Source of the DNA: a virus
Taxonomy: Duplodnaviria; Heunggongvirae; Uroviricota; Caudoviricetes
Reading direction: 5' to 3' (one strand)
Virus record (IMG/VR): IMGVR_UViG_2563366923_000005
Length of the DNA: 16,693 bases
In this document: piece by piece, positions 2,737 through 14,308 of the stretch
Layout of the letters: each line of letters begins with the position of its first letter
Position numbering within the stretch: position 1 is the first letter of the stretch
Notes under the pieces: generated by a model
What the model was told of the DNA's origin: nothing
The model's database searches: none
The model's input: the letters and a program-made list of their open reading frames with translations, nothing else
Translations under genes and position numbers: made by a program

Positions 2737-3180
2737 TCATTCATTTCTGCCCTCATACATCCAGTCATTGCGATGGGCTGCACGCTCTTCCTGCTCTCGG
2801 TACAGCCCTGCCTTACGGTTCGCTTTGGTGATGGGGTCTTGCTGCGTGGTCTTCTGGTTATGATGCATCTGGCATAACGGCTGGTGATTCCACTCAGGCC
2901 AGAACAGAACATCATCACCGCCGTCGATAGGGATGATGTGATCGACAATCTTTGCAGGAACGTAGAGGCCCAACTTCTGGCACTCGACACATAGCGGCTG
3001 ACGTTTCAGATACTGAGCGCGGTACTTCTCCCATGATGCTGAGTAACCACGGGCGCGACGGTGGCCGCGTCTGGCATCTTCCGCCCGCCAGGCTTCGCGC
3101 TTGTGCTCATCGCACTTACCAGACTTCACCCGCTTATTGCATCCCGGCTCAGTGCACCGGCGCATTGGTTGCCACGGCAT
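2737..3180 (-). CDS. HNH endonuclease (terminase-associated)
   Basis: 147 aa from ATG at 3178-3180, overlapping the connector stop (ATGA). Cys clusters (CTEPGC, CDEH, CVECQ) and an HNH-like core (LCQMHHNQK). Position between connector and terS is typical of HK97-like packaging modules. Confidence 0.85.
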   Translation of the reverse strand: MPWQPMRRCTEPGCNKRVKSGKCDEHKREAWRAEDARRGHRRARGYSASWEKYRAQYLKRQPLCVECQKLGLYVPAKIVDHIIPIDGGDDVLFWPEWNHQPLCQMHHNQKTTQQDPITKANRKAGLYREQEERAAHRNDWMYEGRNE

Positions 3181-3479
3181 CAGTACACCCCCACATCGCG
3201 ATACACAGACCACAATGCAGAGATAGCAAGGGGGATCTCTTTCGCCTCCACATCACTAATCATCGTGCGGTATTCGTACAGTTGGGAAACGTACATAAGG
3301 CATCCGATCTTGATGGCAGGAGTAAATTCCAGGCCAGCACCGAACCGTTTACCGATATGCTTCTGGCAGACTTCCAGTGACGCTTCGATGTATGCCTGAA
3401 TCATTGCATCTTCATAGGAATCATCGTTATCGATGCGACAGTGAAGTTTTGCCTCATCAAGCCCAATTAGTTCACTCAC
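3180..3479 (-). CDS. gp6-like head-tail connector / DNA packaging protein
   Basis: 99 aa with GTG start at 3477-3479 preceded by GGGAGGG, and an in-frame stop directly upstream. N-terminus LDEAKLHCRIDNDDSYEDAMIQAYIEAS fits the gp6-like connector pattern. Confidence 0.75.
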   Translation of the reverse strand: MSELIGLDEAKLHCRIDNDDSYEDAMIQAYIEASLEVCQKHIGKRFGAGLEFTPAIKIGCLMYVSQLYEYRTMISDVEAKEIPLAISALWSVYRDVGVY

Positions 3480-3513
3480 GGCTTAAGCCCTCCCTTACAA
3501 AGCAACTCCAGCC

Positions 3514-4755
3514 TCATGACGCATCCTCCTTATTCTCAGAACCGGTACTGACCTTCACTTCCTGCTTCCATGCCTGGCTGTATTCGTCGCCCCCTTCACG
3601 CGGCGGCATCCCTTCGCGTTCGCGGGCTTCGTTCGGGTTCATGATCCCGTTCTTGATACCGCGCTCATAAGTTGCGTAACGTTCGGTTGGAGTGGCTCGA
3701 AGAAGATCGGCAGAGTCGAACTCCACCTGATAACGAATTCCGGGTACAGGCGATGCCACCAGCAACGCGGATTTAATCTGCTGCTCAAAGTTCGCCAGCC
3801 ACGGACGCATCGTCATGGTGAGAAATGCGCGGCTCGCCTCACTAAAGTTGCTGTAGGTGCTGTTGCTGTATTCCTGCAGGAAGATGGGGGACACGTTGAA
3901 CATGCGGGCAATGTCTTCAATGGAGAAGCGCCGGGAGGCCAGCCACTCAGCATCCTGATTGCTCATGCCAAGCTGCTTATAGTCCATGCCACCTTCAAGG
4001 ATCGGTGTTTTACCGGCATTTCTGGCACCTTTGTAGCGCTCAAGCGCGTCCAGCGCCTGTTTACCCTTCACACTATCGAGCCATTCAGCAGTAGTGACTA
4101 CGCCCGCCGCCATCATGCCATCTTTCATAATGCTGGCGCCGTGGCGCTGCTGGGCCAGACCTAACCCCAGCGCCTCACGGCAGATGGTGATCGGCGAGCG
4201 CCCCAGAAAACCATCATCGGTCGAGTAACGCAGGTGCAGAATCTCTTCCTGCAGGTAGGTGCGCACTGCCCCGGTAAACGGTTCAGTAACGGTGTATTTG
4301 TACTTATGCTGGCCGATACGCTCAGGAACAACCGCCCCCGGCGCATACGGATGCAGGGATTGCGGCTGGCCGTCACGGCCCCACTGGATCACCGCATAGG
4401 CGTTACCATTCAGCAGGCAATGACGCATCATCGTGCGCTTGAACTGGTAAGGCGTCTGACAGTCGTTCGGTTGCTCGTTAAGGAGAAAATCCACCGGGTG
4501 ATTGCTTAGCCACTCCCGCGCTTCTCGGCCGTTATCGTTGCGCACGCGGTAGAGGTAGCAGGGCATTGTTGCCACTGCCTCGCTGATAACTGATATGGCG
4601 TTCATGACCGCCGGCAGAGATTCCGCAGTACCGGCAGACACATATTCGCCTGATCCGGTATTTGGAATCCCTGCCATCGCCAGAAACTCATCAATCGTCA
4701 TGCTGCGCTGTTCGGATGGCTCAGATTTACGGCCAAAAGGCCAGATATTCCACAT
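3514..4755 (-). CDS. Phage portal protein (HK97 family)
   Basis: 413-aa ORF directly downstream of the protease gene with a 1-nt gap. Size and sequence character are typical of HK97-type portals. Confidence 0.88.
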   Translation of the reverse strand: MWNIWPFGRKSEPSEQRSMTIDEFLAMAGIPNTGSGEYVSAGTAESLPAVMNAISVISEAVATMPCYLYRVRNDNGREAREWLSNHPVDFLLNEQPNDCQTPYQFKRTMMRHCLLNGNAYAVIQWGRDGQPQSLHPYAPGAVVPERIGQHKYKYTVTEPFTGAVRTYLQEEILHLRYSTDDGFLGRSPITICREALGLGLAQQRHGASIMKDGMMAAGVVTTAEWLDSVKGKQALDALERYKGARNAGKTPILEGGMDYKQLGMSNQDAEWLASRRFSIEDIARMFNVSPIFLQEYSNSTYSNFSEASRAFLTMTMRPWLANFEQQIKSALLVASPVPGIRYQVEFDSADLLRATPTERYATYERGIKNGIMNPNEAREREGMPPREGGDEYSQAWKQEVKVSTGSENKEDAS

Positions 4756-5368: not shown

Positions 5369-6535
5369 TCAGGAACCGGAACCGGAAAGCTCAAGCACCT
5401 TGATGGCGTTGGAGTCCACCACACCACCGCCTAGGTATTTATCGGTGTGCACCTTGTAGAAACCAGGTTCGGTGATGTTGTCGGGGCGGGTACGCACGCC
5501 AGTGGTGTGATCCACGATGAAGTAACCGCGCTTAAAGTCGCCGACTGCCAGGAACGCTTCACCCGCAGCCGCATCAGGCATGGTTTCCAGGTATTGAACC
5601 GGACGGCCAAGGAGGGTATCGGGAGAGTCAGCGACGAGACGATCACGCCAGATGTAATCCCCGTTGCCGTTTTTCAGCTTTTGCAGCGTAGCGGCAGTGT
5701 TGGAGTTCATCACCCATACGGCATTTTTGCGGTATTTGGCTTTCAGCTTATACAGCAGGTCGATAAGACCATCAGAGGAAACGGCAGCAGCCTCCATCTT
5801 CTCCAGCGTGCCGAACGGACGGGTTTTATCGCTGGTGGCCGCACGCGGATAGGACAGGAACCCTTTGGATTTTTTATCACCGTCGCCGTTCACAAAGTCG
5901 GTTTCTTCGGTAGCAGTGAAGGTGTCGGTAATTTCGGAAGACAGCCAGCCCAGAATATCAACTTCGGAGAAGTCGAGAATTTCCTGAGTGGTTTTCGGGT
6001 AGGCGTAGATCGGGTTGAGTTTGATATCAACGCGCTCCATCTTCGGTGTGCTGGTTTCGGTACGCGCTTCGCCTTCGGTGCCGCGCTTAACGGTAGTGCC
6101 GCCCACTGACACCAGCTTCTGGTATTCGTTGGTTTTGGTGGTCTTCACCGTGGCGATGGAGCGCATAACGCTGTCATCCTGCAACTGGCGCATGATCTCT
6201 TTGTCCAGCTCAGGGATAACGGTATAGCCGCCGTCAGCCTGCACTAACGTGGAGAGAGAGCGGGTATCGCCGGTCATGATGTAGTGGCGCAGCTCATCGT
6301 TGCTTACACCTTTACCTTCAACAGAAGTACCAGGCAAATTGCGCTGATCGTCGGCGACGGCCTCAAGGCGGGTAATTTCAACTTCAAGCGCATCAGCCTG
6401 GGCGCGGAGTTCGTCGAACTGCTTTCCCTCTTCATCGTTCAGGCTTCGCTTTTCGCTGTCAGCTTTTTCCAGCATGGAACGCATCTGGGTTTTGAGTGCG
6501 GTTTTCTGCTGGCGTAATTCAAGTAATTTCTTCAT
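5369..6535 (-). CDS. Major capsid protein (HK97 fold) with N-terminal delta (scaffold-like) domain
   Basis: 388 aa from ATG at 6533-6535 (MKKLLELRQQK). The N-terminal ~100 aa are coiled-coil rich, like an HK97 delta domain, followed by a capsid-like body. The track extension to 6652 is judged spurious. Confidence 0.9.
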   Translation of the reverse strand: MKKLLELRQQKTALKTQMRSMLEKADSEKRSLNDEEGKQFDELRAQADALEVEITRLEAVADDQRNLPGTSVEGKGVSNDELRHYIMTGDTRSLSTLVQADGGYTVIPELDKEIMRQLQDDSVMRSIATVKTTKTNEYQKLVSVGGTTVKRGTEGEARTETSTPKMERVDIKLNPIYAYPKTTQEILDFSEVDILGWLSSEITDTFTATEETDFVNGDGDKKSKGFLSYPRAATSDKTRPFGTLEKMEAAAVSSDGLIDLLYKLKAKYRKNAVWVMNSNTAATLQKLKNGNGDYIWRDRLVADSPDTLLGRPVQYLETMPDAAAGEAFLAVGDFKRGYFIVDHTTGVRTRPDNITEPGFYKVHTDKYLGGGVVDSNAIKVLELSGSGS

Positions 6536-6563
6536 GGAGTGGTTTCCGTAACAATTAATGTTG

Positions 6564-6656
6564 AGACGTGAAACCTGCGCTTGGAGGGATGTCCACCTGG
6601 AAAGGAAACCGTCGCAGAACGGGAAAAAACCAGGTGGACAGTGGCGGCTCACGTCT
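6564..6656. promoter_or_regulatory. Nested inverted repeats upstream of the capsid gene
   Basis: Perfect 10-bp inverted repeat GTCCACCTGG (6591-6600) / CCAGGTGGAC (6630-6639) around a 29-nt A-rich spacer, nested inside a 7-bp inverted repeat AGACGTG (6564-6570) / CACGTCT (6650-6656). It lies 27-124 nt upstream of the capsid ATG on the minus strand. Confidence 0.35.
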
Positions 6657-6797
6657 GAGTGCCACTCTTCAAGATATACATAATAATCAATGAGTAAACA
6701 GCTCTATGTTGTCGCAAACAGCAGCGAAAACAGGAGAACAAATAATTTACAAAGTTTGATAATATGAACGGGAAAAAAACCACTTCTGGGGGATTTT

Positions 6798-7310
6798 ATG
6801 GACTTCGATTTTGATGATATGGCATACCCGGATATTTTTTTAATTTCCGGCGAGGAGTTTAAAGGAAGCCGGAACACAGGAAAAAATCAGGTAGATATCC
6901 CGTTTACTGACGAACCGCAAATTGAATTGGGCGATATTCTGATTCAGAAGATTGGAAGCCGTGAGTTAAGCCTTAAAGTTGTCGATCTTTCAATATCAAA
7001 GAATGGAACGCTGAACGTGGGTACAACGCATCCTCACTTACTGACGTTATCCGTAGAGAATCTTTCTTCCAACGCACACAGGACAGCAAAGAGTATGAAT
7101 ACTTTTAATATTGGCTCCGTCAGTGGTGAGCAAGTTCAAATAGGTGAAAGTAATCATATGCTGGTGAATATCAGTATTACTGAACTTGTCGAGAAAGTGG
7201 CTAACTCTGGCGATCCACAGGCTAAATCAATGTTGAAACAGTTACTGGAAAATAGCACCGTTGCCAGTATCGTTGGCGCTGGCGCTTCTGCGCTATTAGG
7301 TCTGCTTTAA
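6798..7310 (+). CDS. Hypothetical protein with C-terminal hydrophobic Gly/Ala-rich tail; accessory gene on the opposite strand
   Basis: 170-aa ORF with GGGGGA 4 nt before the ATG. C-terminus TVASIVGAGASALLGLL looks like a single tail anchor or glycine-zipper segment. About 43% GC in a sampled 60 nt. Only sizeable plus-strand gene inside the island besides the RHH gene. Confidence 0.6.
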   Translation: MDFDFDDMAYPDIFLISGEEFKGSRNTGKNQVDIPFTDEPQIELGDILIQKIGSRELSLKVVDLSISKNGTLNVGTTHPHLLTLSVENLSSNAHRTAKSMNTFNIGSVSGEQVQIGESNHMLVNISITELVEKVANSGDPQAKSMLKQLLENSTVASIVGAGASALLGLL

Positions 7311-7315
7311 AATAT

Positions 7316-7335
7316 GGCCTGGGAAAAACCAGGCC
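7316..7335. terminator. Bidirectional intrinsic terminator between convergent accessory genes
   Basis: GGCCTGG-GAAAAA-CCAGGCC hairpin with TTT downstream on plus and an A-rich stretch upstream. A second 8-bp hairpin GGCTGGAT / ATCCAGCC (7349-7375) spans the stop codon of the minus-strand gene. Confidence 0.6.
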
Positions 7336-7357
7336 TTTAGCTTATATGGCTGGATGA

Positions 7358-7693
7358 TTATTCTTTATCCAGCCCCCACTGATAGAAAGCCCAGCTTGCC
7401 GTTGATTGTGCGCTATGGATAGCGTTCTCAAGGCCAGAGGTTGGGTACGACAAATCAGCCGCCATCCTCTGTAGAAGATCGAGGTAAGCGCTGGCGTCTT
7501 TCGACAACTCTTGCTCCCCTTCTTCCAGCCCAGACTGGTACGATTCCAGATCAAGCTTTTCAGAAGTGACAAACGCACTCAGAGCCAGAAAATCCGTCAC
7601 TGTAATCTCATCTTTATTTGAAAGCTCATCAACGGCGCTGTAGAGAAACTTAAGATCGCTCATATGCCCGTTATCTTTGCCAATCAGTTTCAT
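7358..7693 (-). CDS. Hypothetical acidic protein (accessory / possible interference or immunity function)
   Basis: 111-aa ORF with AGAGGT 6 nt upstream of the ATG at 7691-7693. Acidic and probably helical, with no recognisable catalytic motif. Lies immediately downstream of the iteron origin. Confidence 0.6.
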   Translation of the reverse strand: MKLIGKDNGHMSDLKFLYSAVDELSNKDEITVTDFLALSAFVTSEKLDLESYQSGLEEGEQELSKDASAYLDLLQRMAADLSYPTSGLENAIHSAQSTASWAFYQWGLDKE

Positions 7694-7732
7694 TAATAAC
7701 CTCTTTATTTTTCACGTATATATACAGAACTA

Positions 7733-8011
7733 TGTTGGTTCAGTTAGTTCAGTTGGTTCAATTTGTAAAGATGATTGTTTTATAATGATTATTTCCCGTT
7801 GAGTGAACCAACAAAGCCCCGATTTGAACCAACATTGGGTATTTTCATGTTGGTTCAGTCCATGAGGTTCTAAAATGTTGGTTCAAACTGCCCGTTTGTT
7901 GGTTCAAAACTGCTATTTGTTGGTTCAGTGTTGGTTCATTTTTTGACATTAAACCCATATAAAACAGCCACATGAACATAACCCATAGACACTGAACCAA
8001 CTGAACCAACA
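7733..8011. repeat. Iteron array / replication origin (ori)
   Basis: About 10 copies of TGTTGGTTCA or its reverse complement TGAACCAACA at 7733, 7752, 7804, 7824, 7849, 7876, 7897, 7918, 7929 and 8002, with AT-rich spacers, directly downstream of the replication gene. Confidence 0.8.
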
Positions 8012-8034
8012 TTAATAACCCTCACATGTGTAAT

Positions 8035-14216: not shown

Positions 14217-14308
14217 AACGCTACCCTCAACGCCCCTAATTAACTTGCGAGCCAGGCGGGTAGGGTTTCCCGCTTTTCGGTTGGCCGACCTAGACTCGCA
14301 AGACCAGT

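Follow-up and report, generated by a model that had tools for sequence, protein, structure and literature searches.

He et al. 2024 described a 'new accessory region' beside pri in phage-inducible chromosomal islands (PICIs), and the Tai defence genes were found there (PMC11364771). The accessory slot between the replication and packaging modules holds PICI immune genes (PMC11364771; 10.1101/2025.02.11.637232), and the Tai gene of phi80, which is opposed to the late operon, was described as a 'non-contiguous operon' (PMC11364771). In this study, we analysed the virus record IMGVR_UViG_2563366923_000005, a stretch of 16,693 nucleotides (the window, in its whole length). It is a capsid-forming PICI (cf-PICI), whose insertion site in E. 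coli has fis on one side and yhdJ on the other. Two small genes between its replication origin and its capsid gene, encoding proteins of 170 and 111 amino acids (aa), are the subject here and are called p170 and p111.

Amyloid-type motifs are known from other systems, such as RHIM, a cell-death motif in animals. RHIM and its relatives, PP in fungi and BASS3 in bacteria, are defined by an (I/V)Q(I/V)G..N core (Dyrka et al., 10.1101/2020.01.06.895854). Reports of BASS3 come from multicellular Actinobacteria and Cyanobacteria only, where it is paired with NLR genes (10.1101/2020.01.06.895854). In the E. coli phage defence Bab/Agp (BASS11), a membrane-targeting killer is controlled by an amyloid motif (10.1101/2024.11.07.622273). 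Homologs of Tab, from Pseudomonas phages, are reportedly confined to JBD26-like phages. As a whole, we read the locus of the window as a swappable cassette whose product, p170, is probably an anti-phage protein and may work as a single-chain sensor-effector. This reading is drawn from the sequence, and its probability is put at roughly 0.55.

Cargo slot between the replication origin and the capsid operon

For 45 cf-PICI loci from genomes, IMG/VR and assemblies (numbered with L), we listed what separates the small gene from the capsid gene. About 20 loci held p111 together with p170, and 14 held p111 together with an unrelated 156-aa cargo family (p156). In four loci (L063-L066), p111 homologs (63-70% identical) were found 226 bp upstream of the capsid gene and the slot was empty. 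In other cf-PICI lineages (L003-5, L011-13 and L020-21), p170 homologs (50-65% identity) occupied the same slot opposite an unrelated gene of 82-86 aa. The results showed that the slot between the conserved flanks is either empty or filled by the families FAM0-FAM3. Near-identical islands carried different cargo (the window versus L002; L035 versus L036). The p111 gene is carried by only 6 of 5426 complete E. coli genomes; in one of these, L002, p111 is 97% identical and the unrelated 156-aa gene replaces p170. Variable cargo therefore lies between conserved flanks at a fixed position, and this position is the published PICI hotspot (PMC11364771, 10.1101/2025.02.11.637232).

The borders of the insert were mapped by alignment of the islands. 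Positions 6500-6753 and 7357 onward of the window align with the empty islands L063/L065. Positions 6754-7315 are wholly unlike L002, though the flanks of L002 are 98% identical. The hairpin between the two genes is common to the window and the differently loaded L002, and it is absent from the empty islands. The census, the alignments with the mapped borders and the distribution of the hairpin show that p111 is a backbone gene, which belongs to the leftward operon of the satellite and is kept with any slot content, and that p170 and the hairpin form a single-gene cassette, inserted against the operon direction and exchangeable for unrelated cargo. The convergent layout thus comes from the insertion of a cassette against the long operon of the satellite and not from a partnership. 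We are highly confident that the locus is a cassette in an accessory hotspot and not a gene pair. The supposed pair becomes a precisely bounded cargo slot with a small set of interchangeable, uncharacterised cassettes, which can be cloned directly.

Both open reading frames (ORFs) are judged to be real genes, because each has many homologs and evident amino-acid conservation. Homologs of p170 formed 115 clusters and reached into other phyla at 49-55% identity; those of p111 formed 31 clusters. The p170 protein matched phrog_5789 (E 3e-96) and p111 belongs to phrog_7232, both of unknown function. The statement of the first-pass annotation that no homolog is recognised for either has to be corrected accordingly, although no matching family has a known function. 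Neither protein matched a family in Pfam, NCBIfam or PADLOC, and a PDB sequence search with both family profiles found nothing. Other parts of that annotation held. The p170 gene lies on the opposite strand with its own ribosome-binding site (GGGGGA), p111 is acidic (isoelectric point 4.3; p170 is acidic as well, with 4.8), and the two genes run head-on with the hairpin between them, which was scored as terminator-like on both strands, in agreement with the shared bidirectional terminator proposed there. The predicted fold of the hairpin has -21.7 kcal/mol (z -2.9).

The alternative cargo was compared with known defence and Pfam families, and nothing above noise was found for p156, the 201-aa protein, the 254-aa protein or the 82-86-aa gene (small86). 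The p156 family lies at L002 (4153-4623), L036, L039, L040, L046, L047, L050, L052, L055, L057 and L059-L062; it had no match in Pfam or PADLOC, and it is another candidate accessory or defence gene. In four islands (L010 4025-4630; L051, L053, L058), a protein of 201-217 aa with an N-terminal membrane helix (MNNLITFIITIAGAVVGGAIAGYY...) lies beside p170. It belongs to no known family, and the RHIM-like motif described below is absent from it.

p170 and its RHIM-like motif

The AlphaFold model of p170 was built on a 51-sequence alignment and has a mean predicted local distance difference test score (pLDDT) of 74. Residues 10-90 are modelled as a six-stranded barrel (pLDDT ~80), followed by the motif, two helices and a terminal hydrophobic helix that spans residues 153-169 (Table 1). 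The first-pass annotation had noted a hydrophobic Gly/Ala-rich tail, and TVASIVGAGASALLGLL does form the extreme C terminus, where the hydrophobicity of p170 over 17 residues is at its highest (Kyte-Doolittle 1.87; 1.45 with a 19-residue window). The protein ends with this hydrophobic tail in 48 of 51 homologs, and G160 is kept in 61 of 62 proteins. At D139, A142, K143, L150 and N152, conservation is 90% or higher whichever type of N-domain is attached.

Several weak matches in the homolog search with p170 covered the last 70 residues only. A phmmer search with this last-70-residue module against 1.84 billion representatives gave 87 clusters, in almost all of which the module stands at the very C terminus of the protein, mostly of 150-280 aa. 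The N-terminal parts joined to it belong to no fewer than 14 unrelated groups, which include a zinc ribbon, winged-helix-like domains and a 170-aa domain. The N-terminal barrel of p170 itself shows in the model a weak resemblance to phage neck stopper proteins; a Foldseek comparison with viral models gave template modelling scores of about 0.3 and was uninformative.

The best conserved part of the wider family is the motif between the N-domain and the helices. In p170 its pattern is NIGSxSGxQVQIGxxN, and the family consensus is (I/F)-N-I-G-S-(I/V)-x-G-x-(Q/N)-V-Q-(V/I)-G-N-x-N-(T/S)-Q-x-x-N-I-(T/S). Over all N-domain types, G116 is conserved in 62/62, N119 in 58/62 and Q114 in 55/62 proteins. 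The phi-Q-phi-G core with its downstream Asn is present in p170 (VQIG at aa 113-116, N119) and fits the G-phi-Q-phi-G/RHIM signature (10.1101/2020.01.06.895854). The RIPK1 (IQIGAYN) and RIPK3 (VQVGDNN) cores are matched as well. When 62 of the module proteins were scanned with Pfam, one family recurred: RHIM (PF12721), in 4 of 62. The highest score, 24.9 bits against a curated cut-off of 20, was that of P0221, a full-length p170 homolog (E 1e-14) whose RHIM match falls on p170 residues 102-120. Three more members had E values of at most 0.01, and P0153 scored 12.1 bits.

A second motif-bearing protein of about 254 aa (245-258) is encoded directly upstream of p170 in three loci (L003 7994-8770, L012 9482-10219, L013 9159-9923). 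It carries the same RHIM-like motif as p170, its tail is degenerate, and its N-domain is fused in other organisms to a complete C-terminal module (P0105, P0169, P0218). By analogy, the separate and fused arrangements echo two-component and all-in-one amyloid signalling. In the window, no adjacent gene with a matching motif partner was found.

The p170 gene travels to prophage moron sites and to chromosomal defence islands of distant bacteria. Homologs were found in a P2-like Pseudomonas prophage, adjoining gpD, in a lambdoid coliphage, between the Rz and terminase genes, and on contigs of Vibrio, Halomonas, Marinobacter, Saccharospirillum, Sulfurimonas, Helicobacteraceae and Kiritimatiellales. 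Defence neighbours were counted within about 0.1-3 kb of p170 homologs at non-satellite loci. They include a ThsB-like TIR protein 97 bp downstream at L015 (PADLOC E 7e-49), a ThsA-like SIR2 protein and an AbiU2 protein at L018, DUF4917/PDC-S21 at L016, AbiV at L026 and an Mrr-type nuclease at L017. An all-against-all BLAST of the neighbour genes gave no recurrent partner of p170 outside satellites. By guilt by association, this defence-gene neighbourhood makes an anti-phage role of p170 probable. In the P2-like Pseudomonas prophage (L007 9320-9922), a 200-aa protein with a weak HEPN_RiboL-PSP match is encoded directly before the p170 homolog, in the accessory region beyond gpD.

The modular build of p170, its behaviour as a cassette, its place in a hotspot, the defence genes around its homologs and the conserved motif are observations, and the following steps are a proposal. 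In the quiescent satellite, p170 would be expressed from its own signals and would protect the cell against other phages. The exchangeable N-domain would recognise some part of a phage, perhaps a protein of the neck or tail end, and recognition would let the RHIM-like segment with its VQIGxxN core stack with that of other p170 molecules. The clustered C-terminal helices, with their glycine-zipper-like tails, would then insert into and damage the inner membrane, and the infection would be aborted. In a milder variant, the stopper-like domain, tethered to the membrane, would sequester a neck or tail component and block virion completion, as Tai or Tab does. Upon induction of the satellite, AlpA-type read-through would come from the p111 side, cross p170 in antisense orientation and thereby dampen it, and continue into the capsid operon. 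This expectation draws on what is established about AlpA-type regulators and on the precedent of the phi80 Tai 'non-contiguous operon'. The membrane mechanism driven by the RHIM-like motif is a tentative proposal from the sequence alone.

Several points weigh against this interpretation. Pfam and PADLOC are silent on p170. A sigma-70 scan for a p170 promoter stayed at background level with no convincing site; upstream of the gene there is one weak match (6659-6687) and, by eye, a TGnTAATAT (6757-6765). PF12721 does not match the p170 of the window, and its curated cut-off is passed by only 1 of the 62 relatives. The motif is short and N/Q/G-rich, and possibly it is a product of convergence or a plain beta-hairpin linker; in the model, residues 95-122 are poorly defined (pLDDT 45-53) and drawn as a hairpin. 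Inside the three neighbour pairs (L003, L012, L013), the motifs are no closer to each other than those of random family members. The tail has just 16-17 residues, which is short for a membrane span.

Four other explanations were weighed. The first-pass annotation had suggested a toxin/immunity or effector/regulator pair, in which acidic p111 would neutralise membrane-active p170. The two genes are indeed adjacent and convergent, share one hairpin and occur together in many of the surveyed islands, p111 has the shape of a small acidic helical bundle that is frequent among protein inhibitors, and Tai/Ati and Tab/anti-Tab are precedents for adjoining counter-defence genes. The census speaks against the pair: p111 also occurs with an empty slot or with p156, and p170 occurs alone or with the other small gene, in many taxa without any p111 homolog, so that the two are not a conserved unit. 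Since p111 is present with every cargo type and with none, it is no antidote to one particular cargo. Nor do the two share an operon; they are convergent with the hairpin between them, which leaves no co-transcription or coupled regulation, and p111 continues the primase/ori operon. We therefore consider the pair very improbable; what stands of that interpretation is the accessory slot between the replication and packaging modules and the membrane-acting look of p170. Even less credible is the idea that p170 serves the satellite as a structural part of the neck and replaces a deleted head-closure gene. It appeals to the stopper-like fold and to the clean Phage_HCP deletion in the island of the window, where L002 has the gene, and it has to face 19 islands in which p170 and the head-closure gene occur together, a position outside and opposed to the packaging operon, the non-satellite contexts, the hydrophobic tail and a C module common to unrelated N-domains. 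The replacement was rejected on these 19 islands, on a Fisher p of 0.12 for the association with gene loss and on a negative hhalign result (probability 0.6% for p170 against the cf-PICI HCP alignment).

The stopper-like barrel also suggests a virion-assembly interference factor instead of a killer. A membrane-tethered barrel would cap or sequester phage heads or tail ends and, in the satellite case, leave the helper tails free for satellite capsids. We regard this as unlikely. The fold likeness is weak and without sequence support, and most family members have other N-domains on the same C module, so that a generic effector fits better than a neck mimic. Between the presence of p170 and loss of the satellite's own head-closure gene there was no significant association (8/27 versus 1/17, Fisher p 0.12), at loci that are non-independent. 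Many small membrane proteins encoded by morons are exclusion factors, and p170 could accordingly serve inner-membrane superinfection exclusion or lysis timing, with the RHIM-like stretch as a mere linker. The C-terminal hydrophobic helix and the lambdoid phage homolog directly after Rz agree with this. A tail-anchored p170 would put its bulk in the cytoplasm, however, which is awkward for a DNA-entry block; no residues of the family are better conserved than those in the motif, and in most taxa defence islands, not lysis cassettes, surround p170. This explanation is rather improbable. The farthest-reaching form of our own reading, in which p170 stands for an undescribed single-chain anti-phage family that combines an exchangeable phage-sensing domain, a RHIM-type self-assembling motif and a C-terminal membrane-inserting helix, has a low probability.

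Other features of the satellite

The features of the slot and its surroundings are collected in Table 1.

Table 1. Positions of the cargo cassette, the parts of p170 and the adjoining satellite features in the window
Feature	Position	Strand	Remarks
p170 cargo gene (phrog_5789), 170 aa	6798..7310	+	ATG; Shine-Dalgarno-like GGGGGA 6788-6793, 4 nt upstream
N-terminal beta-barrel domain (aa 1-100)	6798..7097	+	varies within the family
RHIM-like motif TFNIGSVSGEQVQIGESNHMLVN (aa 102-124)	7101..7169	+	best conserved part of the wider family
Pair of conserved helices (aa 127-152, ELVEKVAxSxDPxAKSxLKxLLEN)	7176..7256	+	helices 127-136 and 140-151, pLDDT 82-89
C-terminal hydrophobic Gly/Ala/Ser-rich helix (aa 154-170)	7257..7307	+	candidate tail anchor or glycine zipper
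GC-rich hairpin GGCCTGG-GAAAAA-CCAGGCC	7316..7335		7-bp stem; terminator-like on both strands in the scan
Cargo cassette (p170 and hairpin)	6754..7356		insert relative to empty-slot islands; borders 6753/6754 and 7356/7357
p111 backbone gene (phrog_7232), 111 aa	7358..7693	-	ATG; AGAGG upstream; acidic four-helix bundle
Iteron-type replication origin	7730..8012		upstream of p111; repeat families D1, D2, D4; many inverted TGTTGGTTCA pairs
Backbone leader of the capsid operon	6536..6753	-	borders the cassette; kept in filled and empty islands; strongly structured

The p111 gene is confined to satellites of Enterobacterales, always between the origin and the capsid operon, and in the window it is the last gene ahead of the cargo slot and the capsid gene. 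Its product is modelled with confidence as a four-helix bundle (pLDDT 86) with generic structural neighbours only. Our best guess for p111 is a small factor that binds proteins within the satellite's own lytic programme.

In E. coli KFu015, a chromosomal stretch flanked by fis and yhdJ is 99.9% identical to the window (16.7 kb). The cf-PICI assignment follows from the gene set int, alpA, DUF927 primase, capsid, protease, portal, connector, HNH, TerS and TerL. On the - strand, the integrase is followed by an AlpA-type regulator, a KilAC antirepressor-like gene, an Icd-like gene and the DUF927 primase; after the primase come the iteron field, the HK97-type capsid (start 6535), the prohead protease, the portal, the head-tail connector, HNH, TerS and TerL. 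The iteron TGTTGGTTCA is present in at least 10 copies in the origin, which adjoins the primase gene. An int-alpA RNA (Rfam RF02996; 63.6 bits against a threshold of 35.8) was found at 14233-14300 on the - strand, with the integrase gene on one side and a 313-aa gene on the other. A DUF3892 gene (1-309, - strand), for which PADLOC gave no match, follows TerL, where the packaging module has its second variable end. PICIs reportedly hold accessory genes at this TerL-side end too.

The 5' leader of the capsid gene (window 6536-6700, - strand) is conserved and strongly folded (225 nt, -69 kcal/mol, z -5.3). Among 14 diverse cf-PICIs, its hairpin pairing was conserved with a few double changes. The first hairpin, GTGGCACTCA-GACG-TGAGCCGCCAC, keeps its pairing through double changes in L061/L062; the middle hairpin has a long stem whose sequence is wholly different between lineages, and the third, GGTTTC...GAAACC, adjoins the capsid start codon. 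The leader matched no Rfam family. It could be a control element of the late operon, e.g., a target for antitermination or translational control.

The Phage_HCP (head-closure) gene has been lost from the window through a clean 287-bp deletion at about 3480-3514, between the portal (3514-4755) and connector (3180-3479) genes, with a 7-bp overlap at the junction. The 97-99% identical relative L002 retains the gene at this spot, and it is also absent from L001, L038, L049, L003-5 and L033. The island of the window may rely on a stopper supplied by the helper, or it may be defective.

Comparison with known systems

p170 shares several traits with Tai/Ati: a satellite position after pri and before the packaging module, a single small gene that runs against the operon around it, no recognition by DefenseFinder or PADLOC, and cargo that is exchangeable between prophages and satellites. 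The hydrophobic C-terminal tail and the RHIM-like motif, in contrast, belong to p170. Identity with the phi80 genes was rejected: p170 against TaiEcA (orf63) gave a BLASTP E value of 0.18 and an hhalign probability of 0.1%, and p111 did not align with AtiEcA (orf64). TaiEcA itself (L006 6366-6980) has an R-x4-H stretch (RNDLAH) and weak PADLOC CARF_HEPN matches (E 0.004). These hint at a HEPN-like fold, of which the accessible part of the Tai paper (PMC11364771) makes no mention.

Bab/Agp is also encoded in E. coli prophage or defence hotspots, and Bab is likewise a small protein with a membrane-targeting helical part and a short N/Q/G-rich amyloid-type motif. Compared through the residues quoted in 10.1101/2024.11.07.622273 only, I87-G88-S89-V90 of Bab resembles I105-G106-S107-V108 of p170. 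The order of the parts is different. In Bab the hydrophobic helix is N-terminal and the motif C-terminal, whereas in p170 the predicted sensor is followed by the motif, the helices and the hydrophobic C terminus. A large separate sensor like Agp is not found beside p170, and p170 does not show the Bell/Babybell layout with an N-terminal pore-lining helix and a C-terminal motif.

With RHIM (RIPK1/RIPK3/ZBP1/TRIF), PP and BASS3, the p170 motif shares (I/V)-Q-(I/V)-G followed by x-x-N, with S/T-G before it, and the most conserved residues of RHIM coincide with those of the p170 family. Unlike these, p170 has two extra residues between the upstream Gly and the core, and its motif is internal and not terminal. 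Unlike BASS3, the p170 motif occurs in Proteobacteria and others, on mobile elements and in single-gene form. Compared with the stopper proteins (SPP1 gp16-like, Phage_HCP PF05521), p170 has no sequence similarity, another genomic place and an extra C-terminal module, and generic barrels (PilZ, flavin-binding) score nearly as high in the fold comparison. It belongs to Phage_HCP neither by homology nor by position, since it lies outside the connector block and is opposed to the packaging operon.

If the RHIM likeness is convergence or a linker only, p170 is nothing out of the ordinary: a hypothetical membrane protein in a hotspot already described. If the reading of p170 as a single-chain sensor-effector is true, it would be a one-protein bacterial counterpart of RIPK3-to-MLKL or HET-S, spread by satellites, prophages and defence islands over several phyla, with at least 14 candidate phage-sensing domains on one common effector. 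RHIM/BASS signalling would then extend from the two-gene NLR systems known in filamentous bacteria and from Bab/Agp, the one E. coli case, to compact single-gene mobile modules in many bacteria, and this would bear on possible bacterial relatives of animal RHIM. Earlier publications already cover the hotspot, the layout with opposed cargo and the amyloid-type signalling against phages. The p170 family, with its predicted single chain, internal RHIM-type motif and C-terminal hydrophobic helix in satellites and prophages, appears to be undescribed.

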